Part shown: in pieces, positions 1 through 62,170 of the stretch | Position numbering within the stretch: the first letter of the stretch is position 1 | Layout: each line of letters opens with the position of its first letter | Assembly (NCBI GenBank): GCA_023136775.1 | Contig: JAGLQO010000011.1 | Span: 34,528 to 98,527, forward strand | Direction: 5' to 3' | From: Candidatus Pacearchaeota archaeon | GTDB taxonomy: Archaea > Nanobdellota > Nanobdellia > Pacearchaeales > GW2011-AR1 | DNA length: 64,000 bases | Made by a program: the position numbers and the translations under genes | The notes under the pieces: model-generated | The model's input: only the letters and a program-made list of their open reading frames with translations | Databases searched by the model: none | What the model was told of the DNA's origin: nothing

Positions 1-1920
1 TTAAGCCTGATAGATAATGCCGTGAAACTTTACGGAAAAATGGAGAATTCTTGGAGAATTCAACAAATGTCGGTTGTCGGTAAAAATTTTGGGTTTGATG
101 TTATAACTCCTATTGAGAAATTAACTAAGGAGCAATATGAAATTTTAATGCATGGAAGTAATAAGCCTATTTATGGGAAGTGGTCTTCGGGAGCTCAAAT
201 GAAAATGGAAGATGGATGGGAAGGACTAATTCCTCAAAGCGAAAGATTATACAAACAAACTGAATCAGATTATAGAAGACGACAACTTGAAAAATTTATG
301 CGAAGTCAGATTTGCCCAAGCTGTGGAGGGAAAAGACTTAGAAAAAAGATTTTAGCAATTACTGTCAATAAAAAAAATATTTCTGAAGTTACGGACATGT
401 CAATTGTGAAATGTATTGAATTTTTTGATAAGTTAAAATTAACCGACAAAGAAATGGAGATTGCAAAATTAATTTTAAAAGAAATAAAAGAGCGATTGAG
501 TTTTTTACAAAGTGTAGGTTTATCATATTTGACTTTGTCTAGAAAAGCCGGGACCTTATCTGGCGGAGAAGCTCAAAGGATTAGACTCGCAACTCAGATT
601 GGTGCGAATCTTATGGGAGTTATGTATATTTTAGACGAGCCTTCAATTGGCCTTCATCAAAGAGATAATCGAAAATTAATTGATACGCTTCATAAACTTA
701 GAGATTTGGGAAATACTTTGATTGTTGTTGAGCATGATGAGGATACGATTCGTGAGGCTGATTATGTTGTTGATATGGGACCTGGTGCTGGGATTCATGG
801 TGGAGAAATAATTGCAAAGGGAACACCAAAACAAATTGAAAAAAACAAAAATTCTTTGACTGGGCAATATTTGTCTGGAGAAATGAAAATTGAAACTCCT
901 AATCGTAGAAAGCAAAGTAATAAATATATTAATATAACAGGATGTAAAGAAAATAATTTGAAAAACATCGATGTGAAAATTCCAATAGGAATTATGACTT
1001 GCGTTACTGGGGTTTCAGGTTCTGGAAAATCAACCTTAATTAATAGTATTTTAAGTAAGGGAATGGAAAAGAAATTGGCTAAAGATTCTAAGGTTCGTCC
1101 TGGGAAGCATAAAGAAATTACTTTGGATTCAAAAATTGATAAAGTGATTGTTATTGATCAGTCTCCAATTGGGAAAACTCCGCGAAGTAATCCTGCAACT
1201 TATATTAAAGTTTTTGATGAAATTAGAACTTTATTTGCTAGTACTCGTGAAGCTAAAATTCGGGGATATAAACCTGGACGATTTTCGTTTAATGTTCCTG
1301 GCGGGAGATGTGAGAAATGTCAGGGAGACGGAACAATAAAAATAGAAATGAATTTTTTACCTGATGTTTATGTCGAATGTGAAGAATGCAAGGGGAAGCG
1401 ATATAATAAAGAGACTTTGCAGGTTTTGTATAAGGGGAAAAATATTGCACAAATTTTGGACATGAGCGTTGAAGAAGCTTTGGAAACTTTTGAAAATGTA
1501 TCTTCTATTTATACAAAACTTGAAACTTTAAATCGTGTGGGCTTGGGATATATTAAACTTGGACAAAGCTCAACAACTCTTTCTGGCGGGGAATCTCAAA
1601 GGATTAAGTTAACGAAGGAGCTAGCAAAAAGAGGAACTGGGCAAACTCTTTATTTATTGGATGAACCGACGACTGGGCTTCATTTCCACGACGTTAGAAA
1701 ACTTCTTCGAGTAATTGAGGGATTGGTTGATAAAGGAAATACGATGGTTATAATTGAACATAATTTAGATGTAATAAAATACGCCGACCATATAATTGAC
1801 CTCGGACCCGAAGGTGGAGAGGGTGGAGGAACTGTTTTAGCAACTGGTGCACCTGAAGATATTGTTAAAGTTAAAGAATCTTATACTGGAAAATTTCTTA
1901 AGGAAGTATTAAAAAATTGA
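1..1920 (+). CDS. uvrA: Excinuclease ABC subunit A (UvrA), 5' end cut by window edge
   Basis: Frame is open from nt 1. Two ABC signatures ([24 protein letters not shown]), Walker [10 protein letters not shown], Walker [13 protein letters not shown], zinc-finger cysteines CPSCGG and [16 protein letters not shown]. Confidence 0.95.
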
Positions 1921-2040
1921 CATTTTTCCGTGGTCGGAAAAATCGTCAGGGAAAACCCACACAGGATTTTAAGTCCAGACCCCTTACCGTCAACGCCGCA
2001 GATGGTCTGATACAATGAGGGAATTTATTCTAAATTCCCG
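1921..2040 (+). repeat. Family C element, copy 1: three-hairpin unit starting right after the uvrA stop codon; candidate 3'-UTR or small RNA
   Basis: Hairpins tttttccg-tggt-cggaaaaa (1923-1942), cagacc..ggtctg (1976-2009) and gggaattta-ttc-taaattccc (2019-2039). Homologous copies at 26463-26590 (-) and 34470-34606 (+). Confidence 0.7.
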
Positions 2041-2174
2041 TTATTCAGAATTCTCTTCCATGGAAAATCACATCGTCTTCGACGCTGCATTTCCCATGGA
2101 GTATTTTATTTTAAATGAGTTATTTAGGGCTCTACCCAGAATAACTTTTTATATTATGTTATTCTAATAATTAT

Positions 2175-2576
2175 ATGGAAAGAAAAAATGTTTGGATATT
2201 AGAAGATACTAAAGAATATCGTGAAGACCTTGAGAAAATTGTTGTTTCATATGGATTTAATCCTATTAGTTTTGTGGCGCGAAATCCTTTTTTGAAAGCG
2301 TATTCTGAATTAGAAAATAAAGATAATGTTTATGGGATAATTTTGGATAATAGAGTTCCTATTTATGACGAACCAGGTTGCCTTCCGGATGAAGATATTG
2401 GGGTTGATATTGCTTATGAATTGTATTACGATGACTTGATGGATAATGTAAGAGTTGCATTATATACTAGTGATGATAAGAATTCCGTAATACAAAAAGT
2501 TTGTGATATGGGAGTGATGTATCACAATAAAAAAAATGGGACTAGTTGGGTTAAAGATTTTTTGAGCAAGAGCTAG
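2175..2576 (+). CDS. Hypothetical protein, possibly a stand-alone receiver (CheY-like) domain
   Basis: 133 aa. N-terminal VWILED acidic pocket-like motif and a later IILDNRVP, resembling REC domain beta1/beta3 motifs. Weak, read by eye only. Confidence 0.3.
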   Translation: MERKNVWILEDTKEYREDLEKIVVSYGFNPISFVARNPFLKAYSELENKDNVYGIILDNRVPIYDEPGCLPDEDIGVDIAYELYYDDLMDNVRVALYTSDDKNSVIQKVCDMGVMYHNKKNGTSWVKDFLSKS

Positions 2577-2672
2577 GTTGGAGCGTCGGCTTGGTTGGGC
2601 GTTTTTAGCAGGTGCGTGACGAATGAAATGAAGAGCGAACTATAATATATACGAGAACGGAACGTTCTCTAA
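2577..2672 (+). repeat. Family B element, copy B1: ttggagcg head, GAGCGA-type purine-rich body, TATA-like box and terminal hairpin
   Basis: ggttggagcg at 2577. tataatatata at 2641-2651, then hairpin gagaacg-gaa-cgttctc at 2653-2669. Same architecture as six other copies. Confidence 0.7.
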
Positions 2673-2745
2673 TTGACGCGAATAAATTATAAAGTGAACT
2701 TTAAGAATTAATAAAATATTTATACTCCCTTATCTTAGGTTTCTT

Positions 2746-3099
2746 ATGGTAGATAAACTCAGTAAAGAAAAACTTGCTAGAATTCTTGGATTTACTGGTG
2801 ATGTAATTAAGTATAATGATTATCTTACTGGAGAGAGTAAAGAATATGCAATCGGCAAAGGAGAAACTATATCAGAATACAGGTGTCCAATAGATCAAAC
2901 ACCTCTTCTATATGCGGAAGTAAGTCAGGTTTGGTCTGGGCATTATTGTCCCAATTGCGAAAACACATTTGAAGATATTTCCGAAGAGGGATTAATAACT
3001 ACCTGTAAAAACATAATTAAAACAAAGAAAGATGAGCTCAAAGAAATTAGGGAACAAAAGAGTTTATTGATTAAGATTATTGAAATATTAGAGAAATAG
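2746..3099 (+). CDS. Hypothetical protein with a CP..CPNC zinc-ribbon-like motif
   Basis: 117-aa ORF with ATG start. Cysteine pairs RCP and CPNC, coiled C-terminus. Confidence 0.45.
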   Translation: MVDKLSKEKLARILGFTGDVIKYNDYLTGESKEYAIGKGETISEYRCPIDQTPLLYAEVSQVWSGHYCPNCENTFEDISEEGLITTCKNIIKTKKDELKEIREQKSLLIKIIEILEK

Positions 3100-3106
3100 A
3101 TAAATT

Positions 3107-3394
3107 TTAATCATTGGTATACTTCATGGCTATGTGGGAATATCCATTCTTCGAGAGAATTTTTATATCTTCCTTTATTTGTTTATTAAAATATTCCACC
3201 ATAAAATTAGAAGTATATATTTCTCTTTGTTTTATTAATCTTTGAATATTCCTTTCGTGAAACTTTGCTGACTCTTTACTCATTTTCGTTTCCATAGGAG
3301 TTTGGGATATCAGTTCTACTAAATCCGTTTTCATATATCCTTTAGGATTTTTTAGTATAAATATTTTTCTGATTAATATACCTGCCAACAACAA
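3107..3394 (-). CDS. Hypothetical protein
   Basis: 95-aa ORF with no recognisable motif. The true start may be the internal Met (MKTDLVEL). Confidence 0.3.
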   Translation of the reverse strand: MLLAGILIRKIFILKNPKGYMKTDLVELISQTPMETKMSKESAKFHERNIQRLIKQREIYTSNFMVEYFNKQIKEDIKILSKNGYSHIAMKYTND

Positions 3395-3461
3395 ATATAT
3401 ATTTTTATTATTAATAGTTTAAGTTTGTTATTTTTAAAGAATCAAGTGCAAATTATATTAT

Positions 3462-3700
3462 TAAGTATTGGGAAGACAAAGGCAGTTTTTGCTCACGGAT
3501 TAACACGGATGTCTGACGGCATTCACGGATTCAAGGCAGAACTTAATAAAAAAATTACAATCTAGTGTTTTGGATCTGTGAACGCGATAGCGTTTGTGTA
3601 ATCCGTGAGCCATTTTGTCTTGGAGTTTTATTCAACATTTATACTCAACAATTCACTAATTTAAAAATTGGTTAGCAGATACTGATTAATATTATAAAGT
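3462..3700. repeat. Family A element A1: foldback pair of CACGGAT hairpin units plus a conserved TATA-like tail
   Basis: gctcacggattaacacggatg..cattcacggatt at about 3490-3530. Its reverse complement ggatctgtgaacgcgatagcgtttgtgtaatccgtgagcc lies at about 3573-3612. Tail ..caacatttatactcaaca..ctaatttaaaaattggttagc is shared with 5825-5893. Confidence 0.75.
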
Positions 3701-3719
3701 AATTTCTCTTCTATAAACT

Positions 3720-5640: not shown

Positions 5641-5893
5641 TTAGAATAGCTCGCGGATTTTGGAGATTATGTGGATTAAGACAGGAAGACAATTTTTGCT
5701 CACGGATTTTCACAGATGATTTCATCATTCACGGATTTAATACAGAAATTAATAGACAAATAATATACAAGCTAGTGGCTTGAATCCGTGAATGCCGCTC
5801 GGCATCTGTGTAAATCCGCGAGCCAAATTGCTTTGGAATTTTATTTGACATTTATGTTCGAACTAATTTAAAAATTGGTTAGCGGGTACAGAA
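5641..5893. repeat. Family A element A2: foldback pair plus a conserved TATA-like tail
   Basis: gctcacggattttcacagatgatttcatcattcacggattt (5697-5747). Inverted copy cttgaatccgtgaatgccgctcggcatctgtgtaaatccgcgagcc (5779-5824). Tail ..gacatttatgttcgaactaatttaaaaattggttagcgggtacag ends 1 nt before the ATG at 5895. Confidence 0.75.
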
Positions 5894-9384: not shown

Positions 9385-9451
9385 CAATTTCTCTTTTCAG
9401 GTTGGAGGGGACGACCAAAGTATTGGAGAGGTAAGTCCACTTTTTGTTTTT
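9385..9451 (+). repeat. Family E, left direct repeat flanking the AlbA_2/ATPase gene and the iteron array
   Basis: caatttctcttttcaggttggaggggacgaccaaagtattggagaggtaagtccactttttgttttt. About 85 percent identical by eye to 11342-11412. Confidence 0.75.
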
Positions 9452-9546: not shown

Positions 9547-10983
9547 ATGGAAGAAAAAGAATTTGAGGAATTATTAAATGAATTACTTTCTTATGGGCAA
9601 GAAACAGAATGGATTGAATTTAAGAAAAATAATTCTAGTCCTGAAGAAATTGGAGAATATGTTTCTGCATTATCCAACTCTGCTTGTCTTTCAAAAAGAA
9701 ATCATGGCTATTTGGTTTATGGTATTGATAACGATTCTTTGGAGATAATCGGAACCAAAGTAAGCTTCAAAAATATGAAAAAAGGTGGACAGGAAATTAA
9801 TCATTGGTTAACTATGAGCTTAGATCCTAAAATAGATTTTAGAATAATTGAAAACATGATTGATGATAAAAGGATTGTTATAATTGAAATAGACTGTGCA
9901 AATTCTAGACCAATAAGATTTAAGGGTGTTGCATATATAAGAATCGGGAGTTCAAAAGATAGGTTAGACAAACATCCTCAAAAAGAAAAGAAACTTTGGG
10001 ATATTCTTAATCATAAGAATTTCGAGGATGGAATTACACTTGAAAAAGTTGATGAGAATAAAGTAATTGAACTTTTAGATTACCCCGCATACTTTAATTT
10101 AATGAAATTAGAATTGCCAACAAACAAATCAGCTATTTTAGAAAAGCTAGAACAAGAATGTTTGATTTTGAAAAAAGGTAAAAAATATTCTATAACAAAT
10201 TTAGGAGGAATATTATTTGCAAAAGATTTATCTCAATTTCCAAATCTTGCAAGAAAAATCATTAGGATAATAATTTATAGAGGGAACAATAAATTAGAAA
10301 CTATAAGAGAAGAATCAAGTAATAAGGGATATGCAATTGCCTATCAAGAGTTAGTAAAATTTATTATGGATCAGTTGCCAACAAATGAAGTAATTGATAA
10401 TGCCTTAAGAAAAAAAGTTGAGATGTTTCCAGAGATTGCGATAAGGGAATTGTTGGCGAACACAATTATTCATCAAGATTTTACAGAAAAAGGAATGAAT
10501 CCTATGATTGAAGTTTATTCAAACAGGATTGAATTTATCAATGCGGGGAGACCTCTAATTAAGCCAAGTAGATTTATTGATTATCCTCCAAAATCCAGAA
10601 ATGAAAAATTAGCGGACTTTATGAGGAGAATAAATATTTGTGAAAGGCGTGGAAGTGGAATTGATAAGGTTATTAATTCTGTAGAAATTTTTCAACTCCC
10701 TGCTCCAGAATTTATTGATGGAGAAGATTTTATGCAAGTGATTTTGTATTCTCATAGGAGGTTTAGGGAGATGGATAAAAAAGATAGGATCCGGGCATGT
10801 TATCAGCATTGTGTTTTGAAATATATTTTTAAAGAGTTTATGACTAATGAGAGTTTGAGGGAGAGGTTCAGTATTAGTAAGAAAAATTACCCAATGGTTT
10901 CGAGGGTTATTCGAGATGCTATTGGAGCAGAGGTTATTCGAAAGGATAAAGAAACTAAAAAGTATGTTCCGTTTTGGGCTTGA
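9547..10983 (+). CDS. AlbA_2 (Schlafen-like divergent AAA) plus HATPase_c_4-type ATP-binding protein, often annotated RecG-like transcriptional regulator
   Basis: N-terminus ETEWIEFKKNN..EIGEYVSALSNS..GYLVYGI is typical of the AlbA_2 domain. C-terminal IRELLANTIIHQDF..RGSGIDKV is HATPase-like. Terminal wHTH-like tail. Confidence 0.6.
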   Translation: MEEKEFEELLNELLSYGQETEWIEFKKNNSSPEEIGEYVSALSNSACLSKRNHGYLVYGIDNDSLEIIGTKVSFKNMKKGGQEINHWLTMSLDPKIDFRIIENMIDDKRIVIIEIDCANSRPIRFKGVAYIRIGSSKDRLDKHPQKEKKLWDILNHKNFEDGITLEKVDENKVIELLDYPAYFNLMKLELPTNKSAILEKLEQECLILKKGKKYSITNLGGILFAKDLSQFPNLARKIIRIIIYRGNNKLETIREESSNKGYAIAYQELVKFIMDQLPTNEVIDNALRKKVEMFPEIAIRELLANTIIHQDFTEKGMNPMIEVYSNRIEFINAGRPLIKPSRFIDYPPKSRNEKLADFMRRINICERRGSGIDKVINSVEIFQLPAPEFIDGEDFMQVILYSHRRFREMDKKDRIRACYQHCVLKYIFKEFMTNESLRERFSISKKNYPMVSRVIRDAIGAEVIRKDKETKKYVPFWA

Positions 10984-11337
10984 TTTTAATGTAACTGGGA
11001 TGTAACTGGAATTACCTTTTTTCTCTAAAAGTGCGAAATTTAGCCTTTTCAGGCTAGTTTTTGGCTAATTTAATGTAACTGGGATGTGACTGAAGTGGAA
11101 TTTTTTGGTAAAAACGTTGAATTTAAGCTATTTTAGGCTTGATTTATTGTGACTGAAGTTTGAGATGTGATAAATATTATAGTGAGGATAAAGGGGCTAA
11201 AAGATATCTGCCAATTTGGGCTTAAAATCAATGTAAGTGGAATGTAACTGAAACGACGTTTTTTTAGAAAAATGCTAACCCTAGGCTTTGTAGGCTATTT
11301 CGGACTAATTTTGATGTAAGTAGAATGTAACTCATGA
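10984..11337 (+). repeat. Iteron-like tandem array: about 4 units of 78-85 nt, each headed by the doubled motif aatgtaactgggatgtaactg
   Basis: Units start near 10984, 11069, 11229 and 11312, with a degenerate one near 11147. Each has atgtaac(t/g)..atgt(a/g)actg, a T-run and A-run, and a small hairpin such as tagcct-tttc-aggcta. Confidence 0.7.
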
Positions 11338-11341
11338 GTTT

Positions 11342-11412
11342 TAATTTTTCTTTTCAGGTTAGGGGAGGGGGACGACCAATGTATTGGAGAGATAAGCCCG
11401 CTTTTTGTTTTT
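11342..11412 (+). repeat. Family E, right direct repeat
   Basis: taatttttcttttcaggttaggggagggggacgaccaatgtattggagagataagcccgctttttgttttt. Matches 9385-9451. Confidence 0.75.
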
Positions 11413-14977: not shown

Positions 14978-17173
14978 ATGGAAAAACAAAATAATAAATT
15001 CAAATTGGCTAGTCGATATAAGCCTAAAGGTGACCAACCGAAAGCTATTAAAAATTTAATTGAAGGAATAAAGACTGGTAAAAAAATGCAGACATTGCTT
15101 GGGGTAACTGGAAGTGGGAAAACTTTTACAATGGCTAATGTAATTTCTAAAATTAATAAACCAACTTTAATTGTTGCTCATAATAAAACTTTGGCGGCTC
15201 AATTATATGAAGAAATGAGGGAATTTTTTCCGAATAATCGAGTTGAATATTTTATTTCTTATTATGATTATTATCAACCTGAAAGTTATATGCCTGTGCG
15301 TGACCAATATATCGAGAAGGATTCTGCTATTAATCCGAGGATTGAACAAATGCGTCATGCAACAACGGCTTCGTTATTATCTAGAAATGATGTTATTGTA
15401 GTGGCTAGTGTTTCTTGTATTTACGGAATGGGAGACCCTAAAGTTTACAAGATGATGGGATTAGATCTCGAGGTTGGTAAACCTCTTGAGGTAACAGGTG
15501 ACGGGTCTGGGGTAACAGGTGACGGGTCTGGGGTAACAGGTGACGGGTCTGGGGTAACGGGTAACGGGTCTGGGGTAACGGGTAACGGGTCTGGGGTAAC
15601 GGGTAACGGGTCTAGGGTAACGGGTGACGGGTCTAGGGTAACGGGTGACGGGTCTAGGGTGACGGGTGACGGGTCTGGAGTAACGGGTGACGGGTCTAGG
15701 GTGACGGGTGACAGGTCTAGGGTGACGGGGCGGAAGGCGCTTATTACTAAACTTGTTGCGATGACTTTTGAGAGAAATGATTTGGATTTAAGTTCGGGTC
15801 GGTTTAGAGTTAAGGGCGACACGATTGATTTAGTTCCTGGATATTCTAATAATATAATTCGTGTAGAATTTTTTGGGGATGAGATTGATCGCATTACTGA
15901 GATTGATAAAAATACTGGAGAGGCTCTCGAAAAAATGAAATATTTTTATATTTGGCCTGCTCGAAATTATGTTGTTCCTGAGGCTGTTTTTGATGGGGCA
16001 ATTGCGGATATACAGGCTCAACTTAAAATTGATTTGAAGGAAATAGCTGATCCTTTGATTAATCATCGGTTGAAACAAAGAACGACTTTCGATATTGAGA
16101 TGATGCGGGAGACTGGAACTTGTAAGGGAATTGAGAATTACTCTCGGCATTTTGATAATCGAAAAGAGGGCGAGAAGGCTTATTGTTTATTGGATTATTT
16201 TGGAGATGATTTTTTAATGATTATTGACGAGTCGCATAGGACTGTTCCGCAAGTTGGGGGGATGTTTAATGGGGATAGGGCTCGGAAGAAAAATTTAATT
16301 GATTATGGATTTAGGTTGACTTCGGCGTTTGATAATCGTCCCTTGAGGTTTAAGGAATTTGAGAAATATATGAAAGATAGTCAAGTTGTTTTTGTTTCGG
16401 CGACGCCTGGTGAATATGAACTTAGGGAATCTAAAACTATTGTTGAGCAAATTATTCGGCCAACTGGTTTGACGGACCCTGAGATTGAGATACGGGGAGT
16501 TGAGAAACAAATTCCAGATGCGCTTTCGGAAATTAAGAAGACTGTTGCGAATGGGGATAGGGTTTTGCTTACAACTTTGACTAAGAGGATGGCTGAAGAA
16601 TTAACTGACTTCTTAGCGGAGAATGGGATTAAAACTCGATATTTGCATTCAGAAATTGACACATTTGAAAGAACGGAAATAATTCGGGAACTTCGTGTTG
16701 GGACTTTTGATGTTTTGGTTGGGATTAATTTGCTTCGTGAGGGAATTGATATTCCTGAGGTTGGATTTGTCGGAGTTCTTGACGCTGATAAAGAGGGATT
16801 CCTTCGAGATGAGAGAAGTCTTATTCAAATTATTGGACGAGCTGCTAGGAACTCATCAGCTAAAGTTGTTCTTTATGCTGATAAAATGACTAAATCAATT
16901 CGTGGGGCGGTTAGAGAAACTTCGAGAAGACGAAAAATTCAGATGGCGTATAATTTGAAGAATAATATTAAGCCTCAAACTATTGTTAAACCAATTCGAG
17001 AAAGCCGAGTTGAAATTAAGGACACTAAGCATATTCCAAAAGCAGATATTCCGAATATTATTATTCAGCTGGAGGCTGAGATGAGAGAGGCTGCTGAGTT
17101 GTTGGATTTCGAGACTGCGATTGCTCTTCGGAATAAGATGAAAGGATTAAGTAAGAGGATAGAGAGAAAATAA
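14978..17173 (+). CDS. uvrB: Excinuclease ABC subunit B (UvrB) carrying an internal heptad-repeat insertion
   Basis: GVTGSGKTFT, YYDYYQPESY beta-hairpin region, IIDESH, helicase motifs VLVGINLLREGIDIPEV and GRAARN, C-terminal UVR motif LDFETAIALRNKM. Confidence 0.95.
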   Translation: MEKQNNKFKLASRYKPKGDQPKAIKNLIEGIKTGKKMQTLLGVTGSGKTFTMANVISKINKPTLIVAHNKTLAAQLYEEMREFFPNNRVEYFISYYDYYQPESYMPVRDQYIEKDSAINPRIEQMRHATTASLLSRNDVIVVASVSCIYGMGDPKVYKMMGLDLEVGKPLEVTGDGSGVTGDGSGVTGDGSGVTGNGSGVTGNGSGVTGNGSRVTGDGSRVTGDGSRVTGDGSGVTGDGSRVTGDRSRVTGRKALITKLVAMTFERNDLDLSSGRFRVKGDTIDLVPGYSNNIIRVEFFGDEIDRITEIDKNTGEALEKMKYFYIWPARNYVVPEAVFDGAIADIQAQLKIDLKEIADPLINHRLKQRTTFDIEMMRETGTCKGIENYSRHFDNRKEGEKAYCLLDYFGDDFLMIIDESHRTVPQVGGMFNGDRARKKNLIDYGFRLTSAFDNRPLRFKEFEKYMKDSQVVFVSATPGEYELRESKTIVEQIIRPTGLTDPEIEIRGVEKQIPDALSEIKKTVANGDRVLLTTLTKRMAEELTDFLAENGIKTRYLHSEIDTFERTEIIRELRVGTFDVLVGINLLREGIDIPEVGFVGVLDADKEGFLRDERSLIQIIGRAARNSSAKVVLYADKMTKSIRGAVRETSRRRKIQMAYNLKNNIKPQTIVKPIRESRVEIKDTKHIPKADIPNIIIQLEAEMREAAELLDFETAIALRNKMKGLSKRIERK
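15491..15730 (+). repeat. In-frame 21-nt tandem repeat, 11.4 copies, encoding (VTG[DN]GS[GR])n inside uvrB
   Basis: Counted directly: gtaacaggtgacgggtctggg x3, then gtaacgggtaacgggtct(g/a)gg variants, then gtgacgggtgacgggtctagg variants. G-rich in an AT-rich gene. Confidence 0.9.
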
Positions 17174-17215: not shown

Positions 17216-17275
17216 TGTTATTTTATTGCTCACGGATTTGCACAGATGTCTTCGACATTCACGGATTTTTTATTT
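17216..17275 (+). repeat. Family A unit A3
   Basis: ttgctcacggatttgcacagatgtcttcgacattcacggatt. Hairpin gatgtc-ttc-gacatt. Confidence 0.7.
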
Positions 17276-17282
17276 TGGGAAT

Positions 17283-17388
17283 ATTAAAGTTTTTGGAGCG
17301 AGGGGTCGTCTCGAGCGATACTAGATAAGATTGGTTGGATCGCAGAATGGCGCTATAGATAATTGAGTGAAGTTCAACAAATGAATGA
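17283..17388 (+). repeat. Family B element B2
   Basis: tttttggagcgagg head, ..ggcgctatagataat TATA-like box, small hairpin ttgag-tgaag-ttcaa, tail aatgaatgatt. Closest to B3. Confidence 0.65.
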
Positions 17389-26096: not shown

Positions 26097-26408
26097 CTAT
26101 TTATTTTCTGATCCAGCAGAACCTTTCATTAATCTTTTTTTGTATTTTTCAAGGACTTGATTCAATGCGTCTTCTAAATCTACATCAAAAGTATTTGCAA
26201 CTGTTATCAAGGAATATAGCACATCCCCCAATTCAGATTTTAATTCTTCTCTGTATTTTGCTGGTTCTCTTCCGTAATTACTCATCTTAAGAACCTCTTT
26301 TGAAACTTCACCTAGTTCCGACATAAGATCCAAAACTCTATGTTCTATTGGAGACTCCATATCATTATCCTTGCAAAAGTTTTTTATTTTTTCCTGAATT
26401 TCTTTCAT
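26097..26408 (-). CDS. MazG-like nucleotide pyrophosphohydrolase
   Basis: 103 aa. LMSELGEVSKEV..ELGDVLYSLITVAN fits the EExxE/D helical MazG pattern. Confidence 0.6.
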   Translation of the reverse strand: MKEIQEKIKNFCKDNDMESPIEHRVLDLMSELGEVSKEVLKMSNYGREPAKYREELKSELGDVLYSLITVANTFDVDLEDALNQVLEKYKKRLMKGSAGSENK

Positions 26409-26462
26409 AATATTTCCTAAACGACATTATTAATAAATCTTGCCTAGATAAGGTTGCTCAAG

Positions 26463-26590
26463 CCGGGAATTTAGAATAAATTCCCTTACAATATCAAATC
26501 GTCTGCGGCCTTGACGGTAAGTGATTTGGAAATAAAATTCTGTGTGAATTTTCTCTGACGATTTTTTTCACCAGAAAAAAATGTCAATTA
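26463..26590 (-). repeat. Family C element, copy 2, starting just after the SPFH gene stop on the minus strand
   Basis: The reverse complement reads tttttttc-tggt-gaaaaaaa, ..cacacagaatttta.., caaatc..gatttg, gggaattta-ttc-taaattccc. Confidence 0.7.
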
Positions 26591-26594
26591 TTTT

Positions 26595-27425
26595 TTATTT
26601 CTTAGCATGAAGTGGCAACTCGCCGATTAATAATTGCGGGGAGATTCCTTTTTCTGTTAGAATAATTTTTGAATTATGTTTTAGAGAATTTTCTGTAACT
26701 TCTAATTTTTTCAATACTTGTGCATTTCCAGTGAATGATTTATTAATTAGATCAAATGCTTGAGATTCTCCTTCAGCTTCTAGAATACTTGCTTGTCGTC
26801 GACCTTCAGCTTTCTTAATTTCGGCTCGCCTCATCCCGTCTGCCTCAATTTCTAAAGCTTCTGCTGTATCTCTTGACGCTATTTTCTTTTGCTCAGCTTT
26901 TACCACGTTATTCATGGCTTCCTGAACATCTTGTGGCGGTTCGATTCTTTGAACCTCAACTCGAAGAACTGCTACTCCGTAAGAGTCAGTTTCTTTGTCA
27001 AGTACTTTTTCGACTTCTTGATTAATCTTGTCTCTACTTTGAATACATTGAGTTAAAGACATATTTCCCATTACGGCTCTTAAAGTTGTTCTAGCTAAAG
27101 ATGTTAATTGTCTTCGGTGATCATCAACATTGTATTCTGAAGCTCTTGCGTCTCGTACTTGATAGTAAACCATTGCGTCAACTAATGTATTTAACTTGTC
27201 TGAAGTTTGAACTGTTTGCTCTGGAACGTCGACCATTTGCTCGGTTATGTTAACTTTTCTAGCTGTTTGAATTATCGGGATAATCCAATTAAGTCCTTGC
27301 TCTCCTGTCTTTGTATATTTTCCTAGAGTCTCGATAAGTAATTTGTGGGTTGGTCTGACTATTCTTATTCCTGAAAAAATAAACGTACCTATTGCGATTC
27401 CGCCGAATATCATTCCTATTCCCAT
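26595..27425 (-). CDS. SPFH/band 7 (stomatin/prohibitin-like) membrane protein
   Basis: N-terminal TM segment, SPFH core (VRPTHKLLIETLGKY.., DAMVYYQV), C-terminal coiled coil rich in A/E/K. Confidence 0.8.
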   Translation of the reverse strand: MGIGMIFGGIAIGTFIFSGIRIVRPTHKLLIETLGKYTKTGEQGLNWIIPIIQTARKVNITEQMVDVPEQTVQTSDKLNTLVDAMVYYQVRDARASEYNVDDHRRQLTSLARTTLRAVMGNMSLTQCIQSRDKINQEVEKVLDKETDSYGVAVLRVEVQRIEPPQDVQEAMNNVVKAEQKKIASRDTAEALEIEADGMRRAEIKKAEGRRQASILEAEGESQAFDLINKSFTGNAQVLKKLEVTENSLKHNSKIILTEKGISPQLLIGELPLHAKK

Positions 27426-27462
27426 GGTTGGATTAAGGTGATTGTGTTAATAAGTCTATTGG

Positions 27463-27606
27463 AGAAATTGGCTCGCGGATTTATAAGATTTCATGGATTC
27501 AAGACAGGAGGCAATTTTTTGGCTCACGGATTACACGGATGCTCCGCATTCACGGCACCCTCACTAATATATAACTAAACAGGCTGGGGCATGCTAATTC
27601 AAGACA
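27463..27606 (+). repeat. Family A element A4 plus a gcaccctcac/ggggcatgctaatt module
   Basis: ggctcgcggattt.., ggctcacggattacacggatgctccgcattcacgg, caccctcactaatatata, ggctggggcatgctaattcaagaca. Confidence 0.7.
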
Positions 27607-30075: not shown

Positions 30076-30201
30076 TGATCCCGCCGGGATTTGAACCCGG
30101 GACCTCTAGCTTTCTTCGACGAAGCTATTTTAGAGAGCTTCAATTCCGTAGAATTGATGTCATATAAGACTAGCGCTCTGACCAGGCTGAGCTACGGGAT
30201 C
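30076..30201 (-). tRNA. tRNA-Ile, anticodon UAU, with a 51-nt intron at position 37/38
   Basis: Hand-folded. Acceptor gatcccg/cgggatc plus discriminator A, D arm gctc-agcctggtca-gagc, anticodon stem ctagt/gctag, loop ct-TAT-aa, T arm ccggg-ttcaaat-cccgg. No encoded CCA. Confidence 0.75.
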
Positions 30202-32726: not shown

Positions 32727-34469
32727 ATGGGAATAACAGGACTTGTAACAGAGGCGGTGAACGGGCTAGGGAACCATCTTTCTCATTTGCCTGCAAGCGA
32801 GGCAATTATTTTTGACATCGCAATTATCTTAATTTTATCGGCTATGTTCGCGTTCGTAGCTAAACTCCTGAAGCAACCACTTATTCCAGCTTACGTAGTA
32901 ACAGGACTTATTATCGGACCAATAGTTTTTGGATTCGTAAAAAACATGGATTTAATTCATGCATTTTCCGAAATCGGAGTTGCCTTCTTATTATTTACAG
33001 CTGGATTAGAAATTTCATTCAAAAAAATCAAAGAAGCCAACCTAAAGAAAATCGCAATTATTGGACTCTTGCAGGTCGCTGCTATTTTCGGAATAGTTTT
33101 CGCACTATCTGGATTCTTAGATTTAACTTCACTTCAAGCTGCCTACATTGGAATTATTTTAGCGTTTGGTTCTACTATGGTTGATATTAAATTATTGGCG
33201 GATAAAAATGAATTAGTAACTTTACATGGAAGATTAGTTCTAGGAATTTTACTTCTACAAGATTTAATCGCCATCATAGCGATTGTAGTATTTACGGCTG
33301 GCGGGTTCGAAATGGGAGCTCTTGGAATGGCATTCCTAAAACTCCTTGTAATTTTTTCTATAGCGATTGTATTACAAAAATTTGTACTGAAAAAAATCTT
33401 CAAGTTTGCGGCAAAATCAAACGAATTATTATTCTTAACCTCTTTAGCTATATTATTCTTGTTCGTAATTTTATCTTACGCCCTTGAGCTATCCATCGCA
33501 ATCGGGGCGTTTATCGCTGGAGTTTCTCTGGCAAATTCGCAATTCAAATTAGAATTAGAATCTAGAATTTCTCCTATGAGAGATTTTTTCGCTATCCTAT
33601 TTTTCGTTGCGCTCGGTATGCAAATAGTGTTTAGTGGCGTTGGACAAAATTTATTGCTATTTGGATTCTTACTTATTGGAGCTTTTATTTTGAAACCAAT
33701 AATCACTTTGATATTACTTAGATTGACTGGATATCATCCTCGAACAAGTTTCCTAACGTCAATATCCTTGGCACAACTTTCTGAATTCTCATTAATAATC
33801 GGAGCTATCGGAGTTACAACTGGCGTCATAGATAACGGAGTCTTCTCAACAGTCATACTAGCGACCATTATAACAATGTCAATTACGCCTTACCTAATTG
33901 GATACAAAAAATCATTTTACAAAATATTTAAACATCCCATGTCTTTATTGAAATTTTTACCGATTCACGAAACAACACACTATAAAGACGAAAAAGATAA
34001 AAAAATATTAATAGTGGGATTCCACAGAATCGGGGGAGTAATGCTAGACGAGCTTCTAGAGAAAAAAGATGAACTTTTAGTTATCGATTATAATCCAGAT
34101 GTTATTTCAATGTTGGTAGAAAAGAAAATTTCATGTATTTATGGCGACATTACAAGTCCAGAATTATTAGATAAAATAAAATTAAATAAGTTAAAAACTG
34201 TTATTTCTACTATTCCTGAATATGAGAGTAATGTGTATTTGCTGAAAAAAATTAAAGGAATAAATCCTAAGATCAAAGTTATTCTTACTGGAAATCGAAT
34301 TAGCGAAGCTTTGAAGCTTTATGAAAAGGGAGCTGATTTTGTTATAACTCCGAAAGTTGTAGCTGGGCAAAAATTAGCTAGTATAATTCATAATGGAAAT
34401 TCTAAGATAAAAGATGTAAAAAGAGACCACATCAGACACTTGAAAGATGTTCACAACTCATTATATTGA
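32727..34469 (+). CDS. Kef-type cation:proton antiporter (CPA2) with a TrkA-N/RCK domain, second paralog
   Basis: Polytopic N-terminal region similar to 17389..19095. KILIVGFHRIGGVM..VIDYNPD Rossmann motif. ATG at 32727 preferred. Confidence 0.8.
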   Translation: MGITGLVTEAVNGLGNHLSHLPASEAIIFDIAIILILSAMFAFVAKLLKQPLIPAYVVTGLIIGPIVFGFVKNMDLIHAFSEIGVAFLLFTAGLEISFKKIKEANLKKIAIIGLLQVAAIFGIVFALSGFLDLTSLQAAYIGIILAFGSTMVDIKLLADKNELVTLHGRLVLGILLLQDLIAIIAIVVFTAGGFEMGALGMAFLKLLVIFSIAIVLQKFVLKKIFKFAAKSNELLFLTSLAILFLFVILSYALELSIAIGAFIAGVSLANSQFKLELESRISPMRDFFAILFFVALGMQIVFSGVGQNLLLFGFLLIGAFILKPIITLILLRLTGYHPRTSFLTSISLAQLSEFSLIIGAIGVTTGVIDNGVFSTVILATIITMSITPYLIGYKKSFYKIFKHPMSLLKFLPIHETTHYKDEKDKKILIVGFHRIGGVMLDELLEKKDELLVIDYNPDVISMLVEKKISCIYGDITSPELLDKIKLNKLKTVISTIPEYESNVYLLKKIKGINPKIKVILTGNRISEALKLYEKGADFVITPKVVAGQKLASIIHNGNSKIKDVKRDHIRHLKDVHNSLY

Positions 34470-34606
34470 AAATATCGAAAAAATTTCTGGTGAAATTTTC
34501 TTCGTAAAAATCCACACAGGATTTTAGATTCCAGACCACTTACCGACTTTGTCGCAGATGGTCTGATATAATTAGGCGAAACATTTGTTTCGCCGTGATT
34601 CGGAGT
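34470..34606 (+). repeat. Family C element, copy 3, starting directly after the antiporter stop codon
   Basis: aaaatttc-tggt-gaaatttt, ..cacacaggatttta.., cagacc..ggtctg, ggcgaaac-attt-gtttcgcc. Confidence 0.7.
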
Positions 34607-34691
34607 GGATGCTATTAGTTTTTGAATGAACCTATGGATGTGTTAGAGGATTGATTAAACTTAAAAAAGCTTTAAGCTATTGTTATTTATC

Positions 34692-37891: not shown

Positions 37892-37920
37892 CAGATTTTT
37901 AAATTAATGAATTATCTAGG

Positions 37921-38075
37921 ATTAGTATCCAATAAAATTCCAAGGCAACTTGCTCGCGGATTATAGGGATTATGTAGATTCAAGGCAGGAAAGCAGAAGA
38001 CAAATTTGGCTCACAGATTTACACGGACGTCTTCGACGTTCACGGATTAGAGGCAATGATTTTGGGAGTGAGAAT
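37921..38075 (+). repeat. Family A element A5
   Basis: ttgctcgcggatt.., ggctcacagatttacacggacgtcttcgacgttcacggatt (hairpin gacgtc-ttc-gacgtt), ..gattttgggagtg. Confidence 0.7.
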
Positions 38076-38134
38076 TTTTTATAGCGAATGTATTTACAGA
38101 ATAAACTTATAAAGTTTTGAAGCTGTTCTTTTAT

Positions 38135-38758
38135 ATGAATGTGGTGATGATTGTTCTTGTGTTTTTGACCGTTTCTTCTGTAGTTGTTGGGGGAGTAATT
38201 TTAGTAAATAATTATTTGGATAATCTAGAAGAAACTCTAAAGACAGGCGAAAATACTGTGCTTACTGATGATAATAATTTAAAAGAATCAAATACTAATG
38301 AAGAAGTAATTAATGGTGAAATTGTTACAAAAGAACTTTCCACAAGTGAATCAGGTGGAGGTGGATCGGGGGGATCTAGTGACGGAGAAACAACTCTAGA
38401 AGTTACTATTCCAGTTGTATGCAAAGATGAATATATTCAATATTCTTTAAAAAATTTCAAAGAGCAAACTGAATGCCTAGAGGATTTTGAGGGGAAATGT
38501 ATAAAATTTGTCGCAGACTGTTCTGTTGATGTTCATAATTTAGATGTGAATGTAGAAGATAATTTTGAAATAGAATATTCCTTAACTGACACTTCCAATA
38601 AAAAATTGGATTTAACACTCTTATCAAACAATGTAAAAATCAATTCTCCAGTAATCTTCAAAACAAATTTTACGATAGAAGATCCGTCTGGAATAGATCC
38701 TTTATCAACTTGTAAAATAAAAATGATAACTATTCCTCAAAAAGAAGTTTGTGCTTAA
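38135..38758 (+). CDS. Hypothetical membrane-anchored or secreted protein
   Basis: N-terminal TM/signal segment (MNVVMIVLVFLTVSSVVVGGVILV), GGGGSGGSS linker, Cys-containing C-terminal domain. Confidence 0.5.
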   Translation: MNVVMIVLVFLTVSSVVVGGVILVNNYLDNLEETLKTGENTVLTDDNNLKESNTNEEVINGEIVTKELSTSESGGGGSGGSSDGETTLEVTIPVVCKDEYIQYSLKNFKEQTECLEDFEGKCIKFVADCSVDVHNLDVNVEDNFEIEYSLTDTSNKKLDLTLLSNNVKINSPVIFKTNFTIEDPSGIDPLSTCKIKMITIPQKEVCA

Positions 38759-38765
38759 ATATCAA

Positions 38766-38788
38766 CATTTTTTCTGGTAAAAAATCGT
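38766..38788 (+). repeat. Family C partial copy: only the first hairpin (T-run stem, TGGT loop)
   Basis: cattttttctggtaaaaaatcgt begins 8 nt after the stop at 38758. Compare catttttttctggtgaaaaaaatcgt in copy 2. Confidence 0.5.
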
Positions 38789-38909
38789 TGGAAGAATTCT
38801 AATAGGTAACTCCCAAGAGCAAGTATTGCACGTTACCCGACTTATAAGATTCGCTTCACTCACCGACTTGTTCAACTTTGCTATGTAACTTTATATTTCT
38901 AATAATTAC

Positions 38910-40380: not shown

Positions 40381-40471
40381 AGCCTGGCATGGGGATCAAA
40401 CCCACGACCTCCGCATAATTGGAACCCTAAGGCTTACCAATGCGACGCTCTATCAACTGAGCTAACCAGGC
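40381..40471 (-). tRNA. tRNA-Thr, anticodon GGU, with an 18-nt intron at 37/38
   Basis: Hand-folded. Acceptor gcctggt/gccaggc, D arm gctc-agttgata-gagc, anticodon stem tcgca/tgcgg, loop tt-GGT-a[intron agccttagggttccaatt]a, T arm gtggg-tttgatc-cccat. Intron ccaat pairs with attgg of the anticodon region. Confidence 0.8.
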
Positions 40472-46303: not shown

Positions 46304-46420
46304 TTACAACTCATCCGCAAATGTGAAACTGTCATTCGTCTTCGGCTTACCTGTCTCTATTAATTCCAAGAAATGAGAAGGTTGCTCATATATCAAAAAA
46401 TTTTCTGGTTCAGTTACAAC
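46304..46420 (-). pseudogene. 3' remnant of a UvrD-like helicase gene, paralogous to the end of 48837..50768
   Basis: Minus-strand translation ..ENFLIYEQPSHFLELIETGKPKTNDSFTFADEL* compared with the helicase C-terminus ..SFRMEQPSHFLELIETGKSKMNEGFMSADELEGC*. No start codon or upstream helicase motifs. Confidence 0.65.
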
Positions 46421-48836: not shown

Positions 48837-50768
48837 TCAACAACCCTCCAACTCATCAGCACTCATAAAACCTTCATTCATCTTCGACTTACCTGTCTCG
48901 ATTAACTCTAGGAAATGCGAAGGCTGTTCCATTCTAAAAGACTTACTACAAGTAATATGTAAATTATCTTTAGCTCTGGAAACTGCAACATAAAATAATC
49001 TTAATTCACTATCTCGTTTTGCGTCTGATAATTCCATTTTATAAAACGGCAAAGTTCTTTCGTTTACTGAGGCTATAAAAACATGCTTCCATTCTAATCC
49101 TTTTGCTCCATGGATTGTTGTTAGGACAACTTTTCCAGAAGTAACTTCACGTTTATCTGTTTCCATTATCGAATCTAAAAATCCAATTATATCTTCATTC
49201 CCATTCATGTCCTGAAATAATTTTTGAAATACTCTTAAATTTTCAAACTTATCAGAAAGTTTTGATTCTTGTTTTGCATATTTGTTAGCCAGAATATCCA
49301 AATAACCGAATTTATTTATGAATAAATCTACTGCATTTGAATTATCATCCATCAAGCATTCTTTTAGAATTTGAATTCTTTCTAACGACTCTGGTCTAAC
49401 TTTTAGTTCTGTTGCAAAATCCAAACATTCCACTAAAGACATATCATTTTTGTTAGCTAGATAAATAAATTTCTCAATTTTAATTTTGCCAATCCCCTCT
49501 ATTAGTCCTACAATTCTTTCAAAATCTATAGCAGAAAATGCGTTAACTTTTAATTTTAAAAATGATATCATGTCTTTAATTTCTTCCCTATCGAAAAAGT
49601 CAACCGACCTTGACAGATGACAAGGGATTTGTCTTTTTAGCAATTCTCGCTGAATCATTTTCCCAACAAAGTTCGTTCTAAAAAGAACAGCCATGTCTTC
49701 AAATTTTTCTCCATATTCAACTCTCGATTCAATCTTATCGGCGATTCTTTCTATTTCATCAAATTGCCCTCCACAAATATCTATCGTAACCCGATTTCCT
49801 TCTGCTCTTGTCAAGACCAATTCTTTATCAATTTTATTTTTCATTGAATCAATAATGTTATTTACTGATTTTATTATGTGAGAAGTTGAACGGTAATTTT
49901 CTTTCAAGGTAATTTCGTTTTCGTTTTCTCTAAATTTGAAAACTAAGTCATTACTTGAACCTCGCCATTCATAAATATTTTGACAATCGTCGCCTATAAG
50001 GCATAAATTATTATTCTCCAAAAGTTCTAGAATTTTCATTTGTACTACATTTAAATCTTGAGCTTCATCGACCATGATTGATTTGAAATTATTTTTATAC
50101 TCATTTCTAATTTCATCATTATCATTAAATAATTTATAAGTCAGCATCAAAACTTCGTCAAAATCCATTAGATTTTTTTCTTCCAAATATTTTTGATACA
50201 TTTTGTAAACATGATTAACTTTACTTCTCCAAGATGCATCAATCACAACTAATTCATCATCCATTAATTCACTTATTTGCCCAGAACTTTTTAACTCATC
50301 AATTCCACCTTCCCATGAAAGCGAATCTGCAAAAATACATCTACTTTTAAATTTTGAAATCCATCCAGAAAAATAACGAACCGCATTTGCATTTGGATTA
50401 ATTCCAATATTTTTTATTATACCTTTTAAAATTTGATTTGTTTCTTTTCTGTCGGTCATCAGTGTTGCTTCAATTTCTCCAAAAACTAGCTTTTTATTAT
50501 CTCTTAAAATTCTTAAAAAAATGGAATGCATTGTTCCGACAAATGGAGAAATTTTATTTGTTCTTTTTGAGATTTTGTTAATCATATCTTTCGCCGCTTT
50601 ATTTGTAAAAGTTGTCATTATAATCTCATCTGGTCGAACACCCGAATCCAAAAGTCGCAAATATCTTTCAACTATCGTTGTCGTTTTCCCTGTTCCAGCA
50701 CTTGCTATAATTAATAAATTTCCAGTTAGGATATTTGCAGCCTTTTGTTGCTCTTGATTAAGTTCCAT
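48837..50768 (-). CDS. UvrD/Rep/PcrA-family superfamily 1 DNA helicase
   Basis: IASAGTGKTT (motif I), MVDEAQDLN (II), YRSTSHI (IV), TIHGAKGLEW (V), FYVAVSRAK (VI). Confidence 0.85.
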   Translation of the reverse strand: MELNQEQQKAANILTGNLLIIASAGTGKTTTIVERYLRLLDSGVRPDEIIMTTFTNKAAKDMINKISKRTNKISPFVGTMHSIFLRILRDNKKLVFGEIEATLMTDRKETNQILKGIIKNIGINPNANAVRYFSGWISKFKSRCIFADSLSWEGGIDELKSSGQISELMDDELVVIDASWRSKVNHVYKMYQKYLEEKNLMDFDEVLMLTYKLFNDNDEIRNEYKNNFKSIMVDEAQDLNVVQMKILELLENNNLCLIGDDCQNIYEWRGSSNDLVFKFRENENEITLKENYRSTSHIIKSVNNIIDSMKNKIDKELVLTRAEGNRVTIDICGGQFDEIERIADKIESRVEYGEKFEDMAVLFRTNFVGKMIQRELLKRQIPCHLSRSVDFFDREEIKDMISFLKLKVNAFSAIDFERIVGLIEGIGKIKIEKFIYLANKNDMSLVECLDFATELKVRPESLERIQILKECLMDDNSNAVDLFINKFGYLDILANKYAKQESKLSDKFENLRVFQKLFQDMNGNEDIIGFLDSIMETDKREVTSGKVVLTTIHGAKGLEWKHVFIASVNERTLPFYKMELSDAKRDSELRLFYVAVSRAKDNLHITCSKSFRMEQPSHFLELIETGKSKMNEGFMSADELEGC

Positions 50769-50824: not shown

Positions 50825-50965
50825 AGAATTTAGAACAGGAGACAATTTTGCTCGCAGATTTTGGGGATTTAACGGATTCAAGACAGGAAAAAAGGGCAAT
50901 TTTTTAGCTCACGGATTTTCACGGATGCTTTCAGCATTCACGGATTAAAGGCAGAAAACAGGAAA
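50825..50965 (+). repeat. Family A element A6
   Basis: ttgctcgcagatt.., agctcacggattttcacggatgctttcagcattcacggatt (50907-50946; hairpin ggatgct-ttc-agcattc). Confidence 0.7.
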
Positions 50966-51097
50966 GCAGATTGATCTCAAACGGTATAAACCTCAGGTGA
51001 ACTCGTTCATGAATCCGAAACAGAGAAGAAGAGTTTTTATGTAATTGAATGTTGGGGCTTTAGTCAATTATATAAGTGAGATTTTCTATTTTTAGTT

Positions 51098-59100: not shown

Positions 59101-59505
59101 AGAAGATAATTCAAGACAAGGGGAAATTGGCTCGCGGATTTAATGGATTTTTGGGATTTAAGGCAATGATTTTGGGAGTGTTTTTCTATTTTTAATAGCT
59201 CACGGATTTACACGGATGGGCTTGCCCATTCACGGATTGGGAGCAGGGGGAAATTTGCTCGTGAGTTTTGGGGATTTGATGGCACCCTCACAAATATATT
59301 TTGTTATTGGTTGGTCTTAAACGACATGAACCTGGTGGTCCCGGGCATGCTAATTTAAGGCAGGGGAAATTGGCTCACGGATTTACACGGATGCTTTCAG
59401 CATTCACGGATTCAAGACAATTATTTTGGGAGTTTTTATCTTGATTTGGTATATGTAGAAATTTTTAGCCACGGATTACTCAGGACTTCTCACGGATTTT
59501 GTTTT
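59101..59505 (+). repeat. Family A composite A7: several units plus the gcaccctcac/gggcatgctaatt module
   Basis: Units at about 59120, 59198-59238 (hairpin ggatggg-cttg-cccattc), 59255 and 59373-59411 (ggatgct-ttc-agcattc). Module gcaccctcacaaatatat..cccgggcatgctaattt. Confidence 0.75.
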
Positions 59506-61974: not shown

Positions 61975-62170
61975 TTGCTTTGGGAATGGTTGTTAATTTT
62001 TTGCTCACGGCACCCTCACGAATATATAATAGATATTGGTTGGGGCATGCCAATTCTGGAGATTTAATGGATTCAAGGCAATAATTTTGGGAGTGTTTTG
62101 TTATTTTTAATTGCTCACGGATAAACACGGATGGGCTTGCCCATTCACGGATTTTTTGTTTTGGGAATGT
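61975..62170 (+). repeat. Family A composite A8
   Basis: ttgctcacggcaccctcacgaatatata..ttggggcatgccaattc.. and aaggcaataattttgggagtgttttgttatttttaattgctcacggataaacacggatgggcttgcccattcacggatt. The latter is nearly identical to 59150-59238. Confidence 0.75.

Follow-up and report, generated by a model that had tools for sequence, protein, structure and literature searches.

The DNA analysed here, a stretch of 64,000 nt from a Candidatus Pacearchaeota archaeon (the window), contains a folded repeat, family C, that sits at the stop codons of three unrelated genes: uvrA, a gene of the SPFH family and a gene for a CPA2 antiporter. What is the same element doing at the end of genes that have nothing else in common? 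From inspection of the sequence it had been read as a transcribed 3'-UTR element, a terminator or a small RNA tied to the gene upstream of it. Our results point in another direction. We find it probable, at roughly 0.8, that family C is a mobile DNA element, lineage-specific, non-coding and non-autonomous, which is about 147 bp long and is carried by a Candidatus Pacearchaeota (DPANN) genome. One of its copies is present in some strains and absent in another, and the sites of other copies are empty in the relatives.

Copies of the element and their surroundings

The window has a G+C content of 31.9%, and its promoters are archaeal: (C)TTTWTAWA comes after an A-rich tract, at positions of roughly -35 to -22 relative to the ATG. 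Its PheRS-alpha and UvrA share 100% identity with NCBI proteins assigned to 'Candidatus Pacearchaeota archaeon'. It was placed on contig DAOWHN010000012.1 of the MAG GCA_030641395.1 (Candidatus Pacearchaeota), and 17.5 kb were added at its left end and 0.9 kb at its right end, which gave a total of 82.4 kb. The contigs L018 and L028 are ZHAN22-2 assemblies of the same organism and have 0 mismatches to the window. The three full copies seen by inspection of the 64 kb, c1 to c3, were used to build a covariance model (CM), which returned them from the same places with 144–170 bits: c1 at 1908-2053 (plus strand, 169.5 bits, E 3e-41), c2 at 26451-26596 (minus strand, 163.1 bits, E 1.3e-39) and c3 at 34465-34608 (plus strand, 144.3 bits, E 8e-35), the last being listed to 34625. 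A further full copy, c5, was found about 4.5 kb to the left of the window, at 3154-3300 of L018 (plus strand, 131 bits). Together with a remnant, c4, at 38759-38797 (plus strand), the 82.4 kb thus hold four full copies and one remnant. The pairs among c1-c3 are 63–80% identical, and the extra sequence that flanks c1-c5 is unique and free of other repeats. The repeat is structured and not a product of chance, as had been claimed. The motif CTTACCG-N7-CGCAGA occurs three times in the window where 0.23 are expected.

The copies in the window all lie at a stop codon. c1 overlaps the last two codons of uvrA and its stop TGA (1918-1920), which falls within the TTGACA of the element; its parts are P0 at 1919-1947 (loop TGGT at 1931-1934), P0' at 1952-1970, P1 at 1976-2009, P2 at 2019-2039 and a tail to about 2053. 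c2 starts directly 3' of the TAA stop of the SPFH/Band_7 gene (26595-27425, minus strand) and ends about 40 nt upstream of a MazG-like gene (26097-26408, minus strand). It is 100% identical in the strain contig L034, and the contigs L005, L033 and L035 break within it. c3 starts at the TGA stop of the CPA2 antiporter gene (34467-34469). The remnant c4 adjoins the TAA stop of the ORF 38117-38758, between convergent genes, and keeps P0 (acattttttc-tggt-aaaaaatcgtt) with its TGGT loop, bulged C and TCGT. A copy consisting of P0 only had been noted after this stop, and it is present, although statistically weak when taken alone (CM 12.8 bits, E ~0.3; nhmmer E 0.22). It may be a decayed full copy, with CACTCACCGACTT at 38856-38868 similar to the interior of P1, a match that was equalled by 14 of 1000 shuffles.

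The copy outside the window is placed otherwise. c5 is antisense to both its neighbours, the genes for an M48 peptidase and LemA (both on the minus strand). A distance of 125 nt separates it from the stop codon of LemA, the nearest one, and it lies upstream of M48, 41 nt from the start of that gene. The rule that the element directly follows a stop codon, always in the orientation of the upstream gene, therefore holds for the copies in the window and breaks down for c5. With the remnant included, four of five copies start at a stop codon in sense, which could be a sign of function but is not significant.

Structure of the element

The consensus fold consists of four hairpins, P0, P0', P1 and P2, and not of three as first described. 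P0 has a stem of 12 bp, an invariant TGGT loop and, on the 3' arm, a conserved bulged C; the two arms are GACAtttttccg / cggaaaaaTcGTC in c1 and CGAAaaaatttc / gaaattttCttcg in c3. The stem and the loop had been recognised correctly, but not the length of the stem or the bulge. P0' is a 7-bp stem, aaaaYYC-ACACA-GRATTTT, with ACACA as its loop, and the block cacacagRatttta, which had been taken to be single-stranded, makes up the loop and 3' arm of this hairpin. P1 has a stem of 6-7 bp around a loop with invariant CTTACCG and CGCAGA, and P2 a stem of 9 bp. The conserved loops and junctions are TGGT, TCGTCAG, CACAC, CTTACCG, CGCAGA and TGATA. An A-rich leader of 8 nt (AAAAAATT, AAATAATT, GAAAATAT) precedes P0, and the sequence runs at least 12 nt past P2, so the copies were in the right places in the earlier note but their limits were too narrow, the start lying about 8 nt earlier than given. 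The leader brings this start to or inside the stop codon. The ends of the element read ACAAAGTTGACA... and ...AATTGTTTTTGT, and the T-rich end of c3, attagtttttga, is similar to that of c5, aattgtttttgt (T-rich 3' ends ttgtttttgt and ttagtttttga in c5 and c3).

The compensatory changes reported for P0, P1 and P2 are real. In the four distinct full copies 98% of the 150 pair cells are standard pairs, and 17 of the 38 pairs are changed on both sides, a number reached by 0 of 500 shuffles; sliding the pair partners abolishes the signal. The stems are almost purely Watson-Crick, with a single C-A mismatch, in P0' of c1. True G-U pairs are absent, the lone 'GU' cell being a misalignment by the CM of the c3 P0, which folds perfectly. 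Both strands fold with z-scores of -3 to -5, and in the full copies neither the fold energy nor the G-U pairs favoured one strand.

The variation between the copies has the form of a block-wise mosaic, not of gradual drift. In c3 both the divergent P0 and P2, which is replaced by ggcgaaac-attt-gtttcgcc, are swapped as whole hairpins, and the outer variants of P1 (cagacc; caaatY) occur with the inner variants (gtcaaSgc; gactttgt) in all four combinations among c1, c2, c3 and c5. The T-run of P0 is T5-T7 in c1, c2 and c4 and T3-T4 in c3 and c5, and its A-run yields a T-run on the opposite strand.

Six-frame translation gave no open frame conserved across the copies, only short non-conserved ones. 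Terminal inverted repeats were not found in any of the four full copies, where the left end matches the reverse-complemented right end no better than shuffles do; the ends of c5 have 5 nt in common (ACAAA/TTTGT), which is not significant. The statement that this is no named RNA family agrees with Rfam 15, which at gathering thresholds gave two tRNAs in the window and nothing on family C, while in E-value mode the best matches on c1 had 16.5 and 10.3 bits (E 3 to 6). No TATA-like motif, judged against the genome's own promoter consensus, is common to all four full copies; none of the TATA-like stretches ATTTTAAG, GATATAAT and AATTTATT (the last in P2) is present in both c3 and c5. C/D-box, H/ACA and K-turn motifs were rejected by eye, as CTGA and ANA are not conserved in c2. 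The two tRNA genes found by Rfam, at 30076-30201 and 40381-40471 (both minus strand), bear long introns, one of them of 52 nt at the canonical position, and were missed by ARAGORN in bacterial mode, an early sign that the window is archaeal.

Insertion and strain polymorphism at c5

On either side of c5 stands the same 14-nt sequence, TATATAACCTATAT, as an exact direct repeat, and 72 kb contain no further occurrence of it. In the strain contig L031, which is from another sample of the same site and has an identical PadR protein, the site is empty: the 14-nt sequence is present once, without the element, and the junction reads ...gtttttatatataacctatat|tctgcg.... The flanks of the empty site are 99.5% and 98.2% identical to the reference, and the filled allele is found in the contigs L028 and L030. 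c5 is thus a filled/empty allele pair with a target-site duplication. The duplicated 14-bp segment is part of the M48 TATA box, and a TATA box is accordingly also a possible landing site if the duplication restores it. The candidate target sequence, GTTTTTATATATAACCTATATTCT, is palindromic (T-ATATA-ACC-TATAT), and the repeat extends to about 25 nt with imperfect microhomology. In a relative, L023, a 160-aa gene lies between M48 and LemA; no remnant of it was found in the c5 spacer.

Both the target-site duplication and the strain polymorphism come from this one site. At c1-c3 no flanking duplication above chance was found, and c3 has a possible decayed 13-nt repeat ending in ATTGA, with 8 of 13 matches, which is not significant. 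A duplication can therefore be detected in one of the four full copies, and this counts against a mobile element.

Six short metagenome contigs begin or end within family C copies, a pattern that is typical of multi-copy repeats. c5 has been inserted recently but is only 65–78% identical to c1-c3, which implies that a closer source copy exists elsewhere in the genome. The contig breaks and the low identity of c5 both suggest that there are probably further, closer copies outside the 82.4 kb.

Orthologous sites in relatives

The site of c3 is empty in L026 and L027, which are from the same sampling site and have 82–83% PheRS identity. Their CPA2-pheS junction reads TAA-acc-ttaaaaaagct...ATG, a spacer of 31 nt in which the promoter begins 3 nt after the stop, and the gene coordinates of a third relative agree with such a short spacer. 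Between the CPA2 stop and the same conserved promoter, the window contains an additional 187 nt (34470-34656). Since the C-terminus of CPA2 and its stop codon are at the orthologous position in L015, the insertion of c3 took place exactly at the stop-promoter junction. L015 (82% PheRS identity) has an unrelated GC-rich hairpin repeat, GGAGGGCTCG..., in the same CPA2-pheS spacer (9846-9950), where it has been miscalled as a 44-aa ORF. The same stop-promoter junction is thus filled by different elements in different lineages.

The uvrA relatives L023 and L025 (86–87% identity) are also without the element. In L025 uvrA overlaps uvrC, and other gene pairs in L025 and L026/L027 overlap outright. 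The C-terminus of UvrA is ...EVLKN* in the window, as compared to ...EVL* in L023 and ...EVLKKG* in L025.

In the relatives L014, L015, L023, L025 and L026/L027, with 80–92% marker-protein identity, the CM and nhmmer found no family C copy within about 64 kb of non-redundant sequence, and it is to these fetched loci that the lineage restriction of the family applies. A strict pattern, CACACAGNATTTTAN{6,14}CTTACCG, which c5 itself fails, gave only chance matches in high-GC coding DNA when run on GTDB genomes, JGI metagenomes and IMG/VR, and looser patterns gave no match in viral contigs.

Two blocks of the window are absent from the relatives. The first, 1921-3719, separates uvrA and uvrC by 1.8 kb, as compared to the overlap in L025, and contains c1, repeats and the ORFs 2175-2576 and 2746-3099, which have no Pfam matches. 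The second, 37892-38909, lies between pheT and a convergent gene of 159/180 aa, which are 1 kb apart here and overlap in L026/L027, and contains repeats, the ORF 38117-38758 and c4. A family C copy stands at one edge of each block, and the other repeat families of the window stand at the opposite one.

Other repeats in the window

At least two other intergenic repeat families are present in the window: GCTCACGGATT..CACGGATG-loop-CATTCACGGATT, in 8 or more copies, and GCTCGCGGATT..GGATT, in about 6. They are found at 3479-3555, 5643-5830, 17216-17288, 27462-27574, 37943-38069, 50841-50970, 59121-59433 and 62005-62153, often side by side, and in tandem, convergent and divergent spacers alike. 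Dispersed repeats are unusually frequent in this small genome.

A gene for an AlbA_2/Schlafen-like ATPase (9547-10983) lies between the two copies of a direct repeat of 45 nt (GGGGACGACCAAAGTATTGGAGAGGTAAGTCCACTTTTTGTTTTT; 91% identity), at 9407-9451 and 11368-11412, which may mark a mobile or recombining cassette. Just past the stop of this gene there is an 84-nt tandem duplication, 10985-11145, and its second unit has a P0-like hairpin, TTTTT-TGGT-AAAAA, at 11101-11114. The uvrB ORF (14978-17173) contains a 21-nt tandem repeat of about 15 units (15448-15771), which inserts an in-frame 7-residue repeat in UvrB. A stretch of 96 nt upstream of a rhodanese gene (46307-46402) is 75% identical to 48849-48944, the 3' end of a UvrD-like helicase gene (48837-50768), and may be a gene fragment from a rearrangement.

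A probable mobile element in a compact genome

We infer that an enzyme supplied in trans inserts family C at nicks that would be staggered by 14 bp, the length of the duplication. This duplication is longer than in most insertion-sequence families. A Pfam scan of 30 ORFs of the window found no transposase, Cas1 or reverse transcriptase. In a compact genome, where the next TATA/BRE promoter abuts the preceding stop codon, insertions would survive almost only at the junction between the two. The gap of 3 nt between stop and promoter in L026/L027, and the overlapping gene pairs of the relatives, imply that this junction is almost the sole neutral insertion point. The element probably appears to be attached to stop codons because insertions are tolerated almost nowhere else.

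When inserted in sense, the element would join the 3' UTR of the upstream gene, and the three sense copies are likely to be co-transcribed with it. In that position P0, a hairpin of a T-run and an A-run, might end transcription coming from either side, in the manner of archaeal oligo-T terminators; judging from its sequence, such a secondary role is possible, and the survival of P0 alone in c4 hints at selection on this hairpin after insertion.

The complementarity of the stems is probably kept at the level of DNA. The stems may serve as recognition structures for the mobilising enzyme, or, alternatively, template switching from one hairpin arm to the other, together with exchange among the copies, may homogenise them. 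Template switching during replication creates and maintains perfect hairpins (PMC8794818). Because such upkeep of palindromes in the DNA, together with exchange between copies, fits the pattern, the covariation alone is no evidence of a functional RNA.

Comparison with known mobile elements

MITEs and other small repeats (Correia/CREE, RUP, BOX, SPRITE and ERIC, and SM of Sulfolobus) are, like family C, small, non-coding, multi-copy and intergenic; they fold strongly and often lie just downstream of genes with which they are co-transcribed. With its 147 bp, family C is below the limit of about 500 bp for MITEs, and it is non-coding, multi-copy and mostly intergenic. Target-site duplication and strain polymorphism are common to both, in family C at c5 only. 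BOX elements are modular and mosaic, and so are the family C copies (PMC10969869). Unlike MITEs, which form one fold-back from their inverted-repeat ends, family C is without terminal inverted repeats and has four independent perfect hairpins, no parent insertion sequence is known for it, and its host is a DPANN archaeon. Functionally, it belongs with the small mobile repeats of the MITE, REP and BOX-like kind (PMC10969869).

REP/BIME elements and the palindrome-associated elements derived from IS200/IS605 resemble family C in having no terminal inverted repeats and in their perfect Watson-Crick hairpins with co-evolving arms, which are thought to act in single-stranded DNA. They are also extragenic and often found just past stop codons. 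However, elements of the REP and IS200/IS605 types make no duplication and insert beside a fixed tetra- or pentanucleotide, whereas family C has a 14-bp duplication and variable left flanks. REPs are single GC-rich hairpins of 20-40 nt; family C is AT-rich and has four hairpins.

Casposons are archaeal like family C, and their duplications have the length observed here, at the single insertion c5. The MetMaz-C1 casposon of Methanosarcina mazei makes a duplication of 14 nt (PMC10359463), and the casposase of A. boonei one of 15 bp, at a palindromic target beside the 3' end of a gene (PMC5137440). Integration beside gene 3' ends, in a target with a small palindrome, is a casposon trait, and the target of c5 is palindromic too. 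But casposons are about 10 kb long, carry genes for Cas1 and PolB and end in inverted repeats of tens of nt, and such ends are not present in family C; no Cas1 gene was seen within 82 kb, and the copies sit at differing targets. Among the features that define a casposon, the length of the duplication is the only one that family C displays.

SINE-like retroposons, which use target-primed reverse transcription, share with family C the lack of terminal inverted repeats, the long duplication and the high degree of structure, as well as the T/U-rich 3' end (c5, c3) and the microhomology to about 25 nt (c5). They differ in that family C is without an A-tail and an internal promoter, no reverse transcriptase was seen, and its purely Watson-Crick stems do not point to an RNA intermediate. 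SINE-like retroposons are not known from archaea, and we regard an RNA-mediated route as the weaker alternative.

It is a tentative and rather doubtful extension of these comparisons that a Cas1-solo (casposase-like) integrase or, less likely, an RNA intermediate mobilises family C, with P0 co-opted as a two-way terminator. Either route would explain the 14-bp duplication, the palindromic target and the landing beside gene 3' ends. A full-text literature search found no description of small mobile repeats of this kind in Pacearchaeota or DPANN.

Alternative explanations

The reading closest to the earlier one is that family C is a functional 3'-UTR or terminator module, co-transcribed with the gene and ending transcription or protecting the 3' end of the mRNA. 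c1-c4 all begin at or within a stop codon in sense orientation, as it would predict, their stems covary, P0 has a T5-T7 run in c1, c2 and c4 and a second T-run on the other strand by its A-run, and P0 alone has been kept in the decayed c4, between convergent genes. Against this stands foremost c5, antisense and far from a stop codon. The orientation and position of further copies had been named beforehand as the check on the claim, and it was run on this one further copy; we count the outcome as a refutation. Furthermore, relatives lack the element at the orthologous sites and strains are polymorphic for it, which means that the genes function in its absence. The T-run is down to T3-T4 in c3 and c5, and neither G-U pairs nor a strand asymmetry are found. 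A preference for stop codons is expected anyway where the spacer from stop to promoter is 3 nt. We consider a functional module of this kind unlikely, and the earlier claim of a transcribed RNA tied to the upstream gene, which also finds no conserved TATA motif in its favour, is not upheld.

Could the copies instead be genes of a small-RNA family, about 130 nt long, read from either strand and with promoters of their own? The fold z-scores on both strands and the conserved loop and junction motifs would agree with this, and the sole C-A mismatch, in P0' of c1, becomes a G-U pair if the minus strand is read. However, the copies are each preceded by unrelated sequence, either coding or spacer DNA, each of the internal TATA-like stretches is lost in c3 or c5, Rfam gave no match, and presence/absence polymorphism suits a parasite better than a gene, which makes small-RNA genes very improbable.

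That the copies are attC-like recombination sites marking the 3' ends of mobile gene cassettes is hardly credible: they do lie directly after stop codons in the gene's orientation, their structure is more conserved than their sequence, and c1 and c4 border extra-ORF blocks that the relatives lack, but the upstream genes are core genes (uvrA, CPA2 antiporter, SPFH), there are four local hairpins and not one long bulged R''-L''/L'-R' hairpin, GTTRRRY/RYYYAAC cores are absent (the tails GTTATTC, GGCTTGA, GTGATTC and GACTTAA misfit GTTRRRY), and c5, where 147 bp alone were inserted, with a target-site duplication but without a cassette, largely refutes it.

Implications

Perfect compensatory stems and a position in sense next to stop codons mimicked a functional RNA in this case, and mobile DNA that maintains its palindromes explains them better; this calls for caution. 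Family C is demonstrably active, being polymorphic between strains with 98–99.5% identical flanks, and its insertion can rewrite the end of a gene, as in uvrA, where the stop codon now comes from the element. A 14-bp duplication without inverted-repeat ends misfits the usual transposase families and points to another mechanism of integration, possibly a Cas1-like one. If a Cas1-solo integrase or an RNA route were true, this would be the first non-autonomous element of such a kind, and its host would be a DPANN archaeon whose genome has next to no intergenic space. The genomes of DPANN archaea are tiny and tightly packed, and family C shows where insertions are tolerated in them: in the few nucleotides that separate a stop codon from the TATA box after it.
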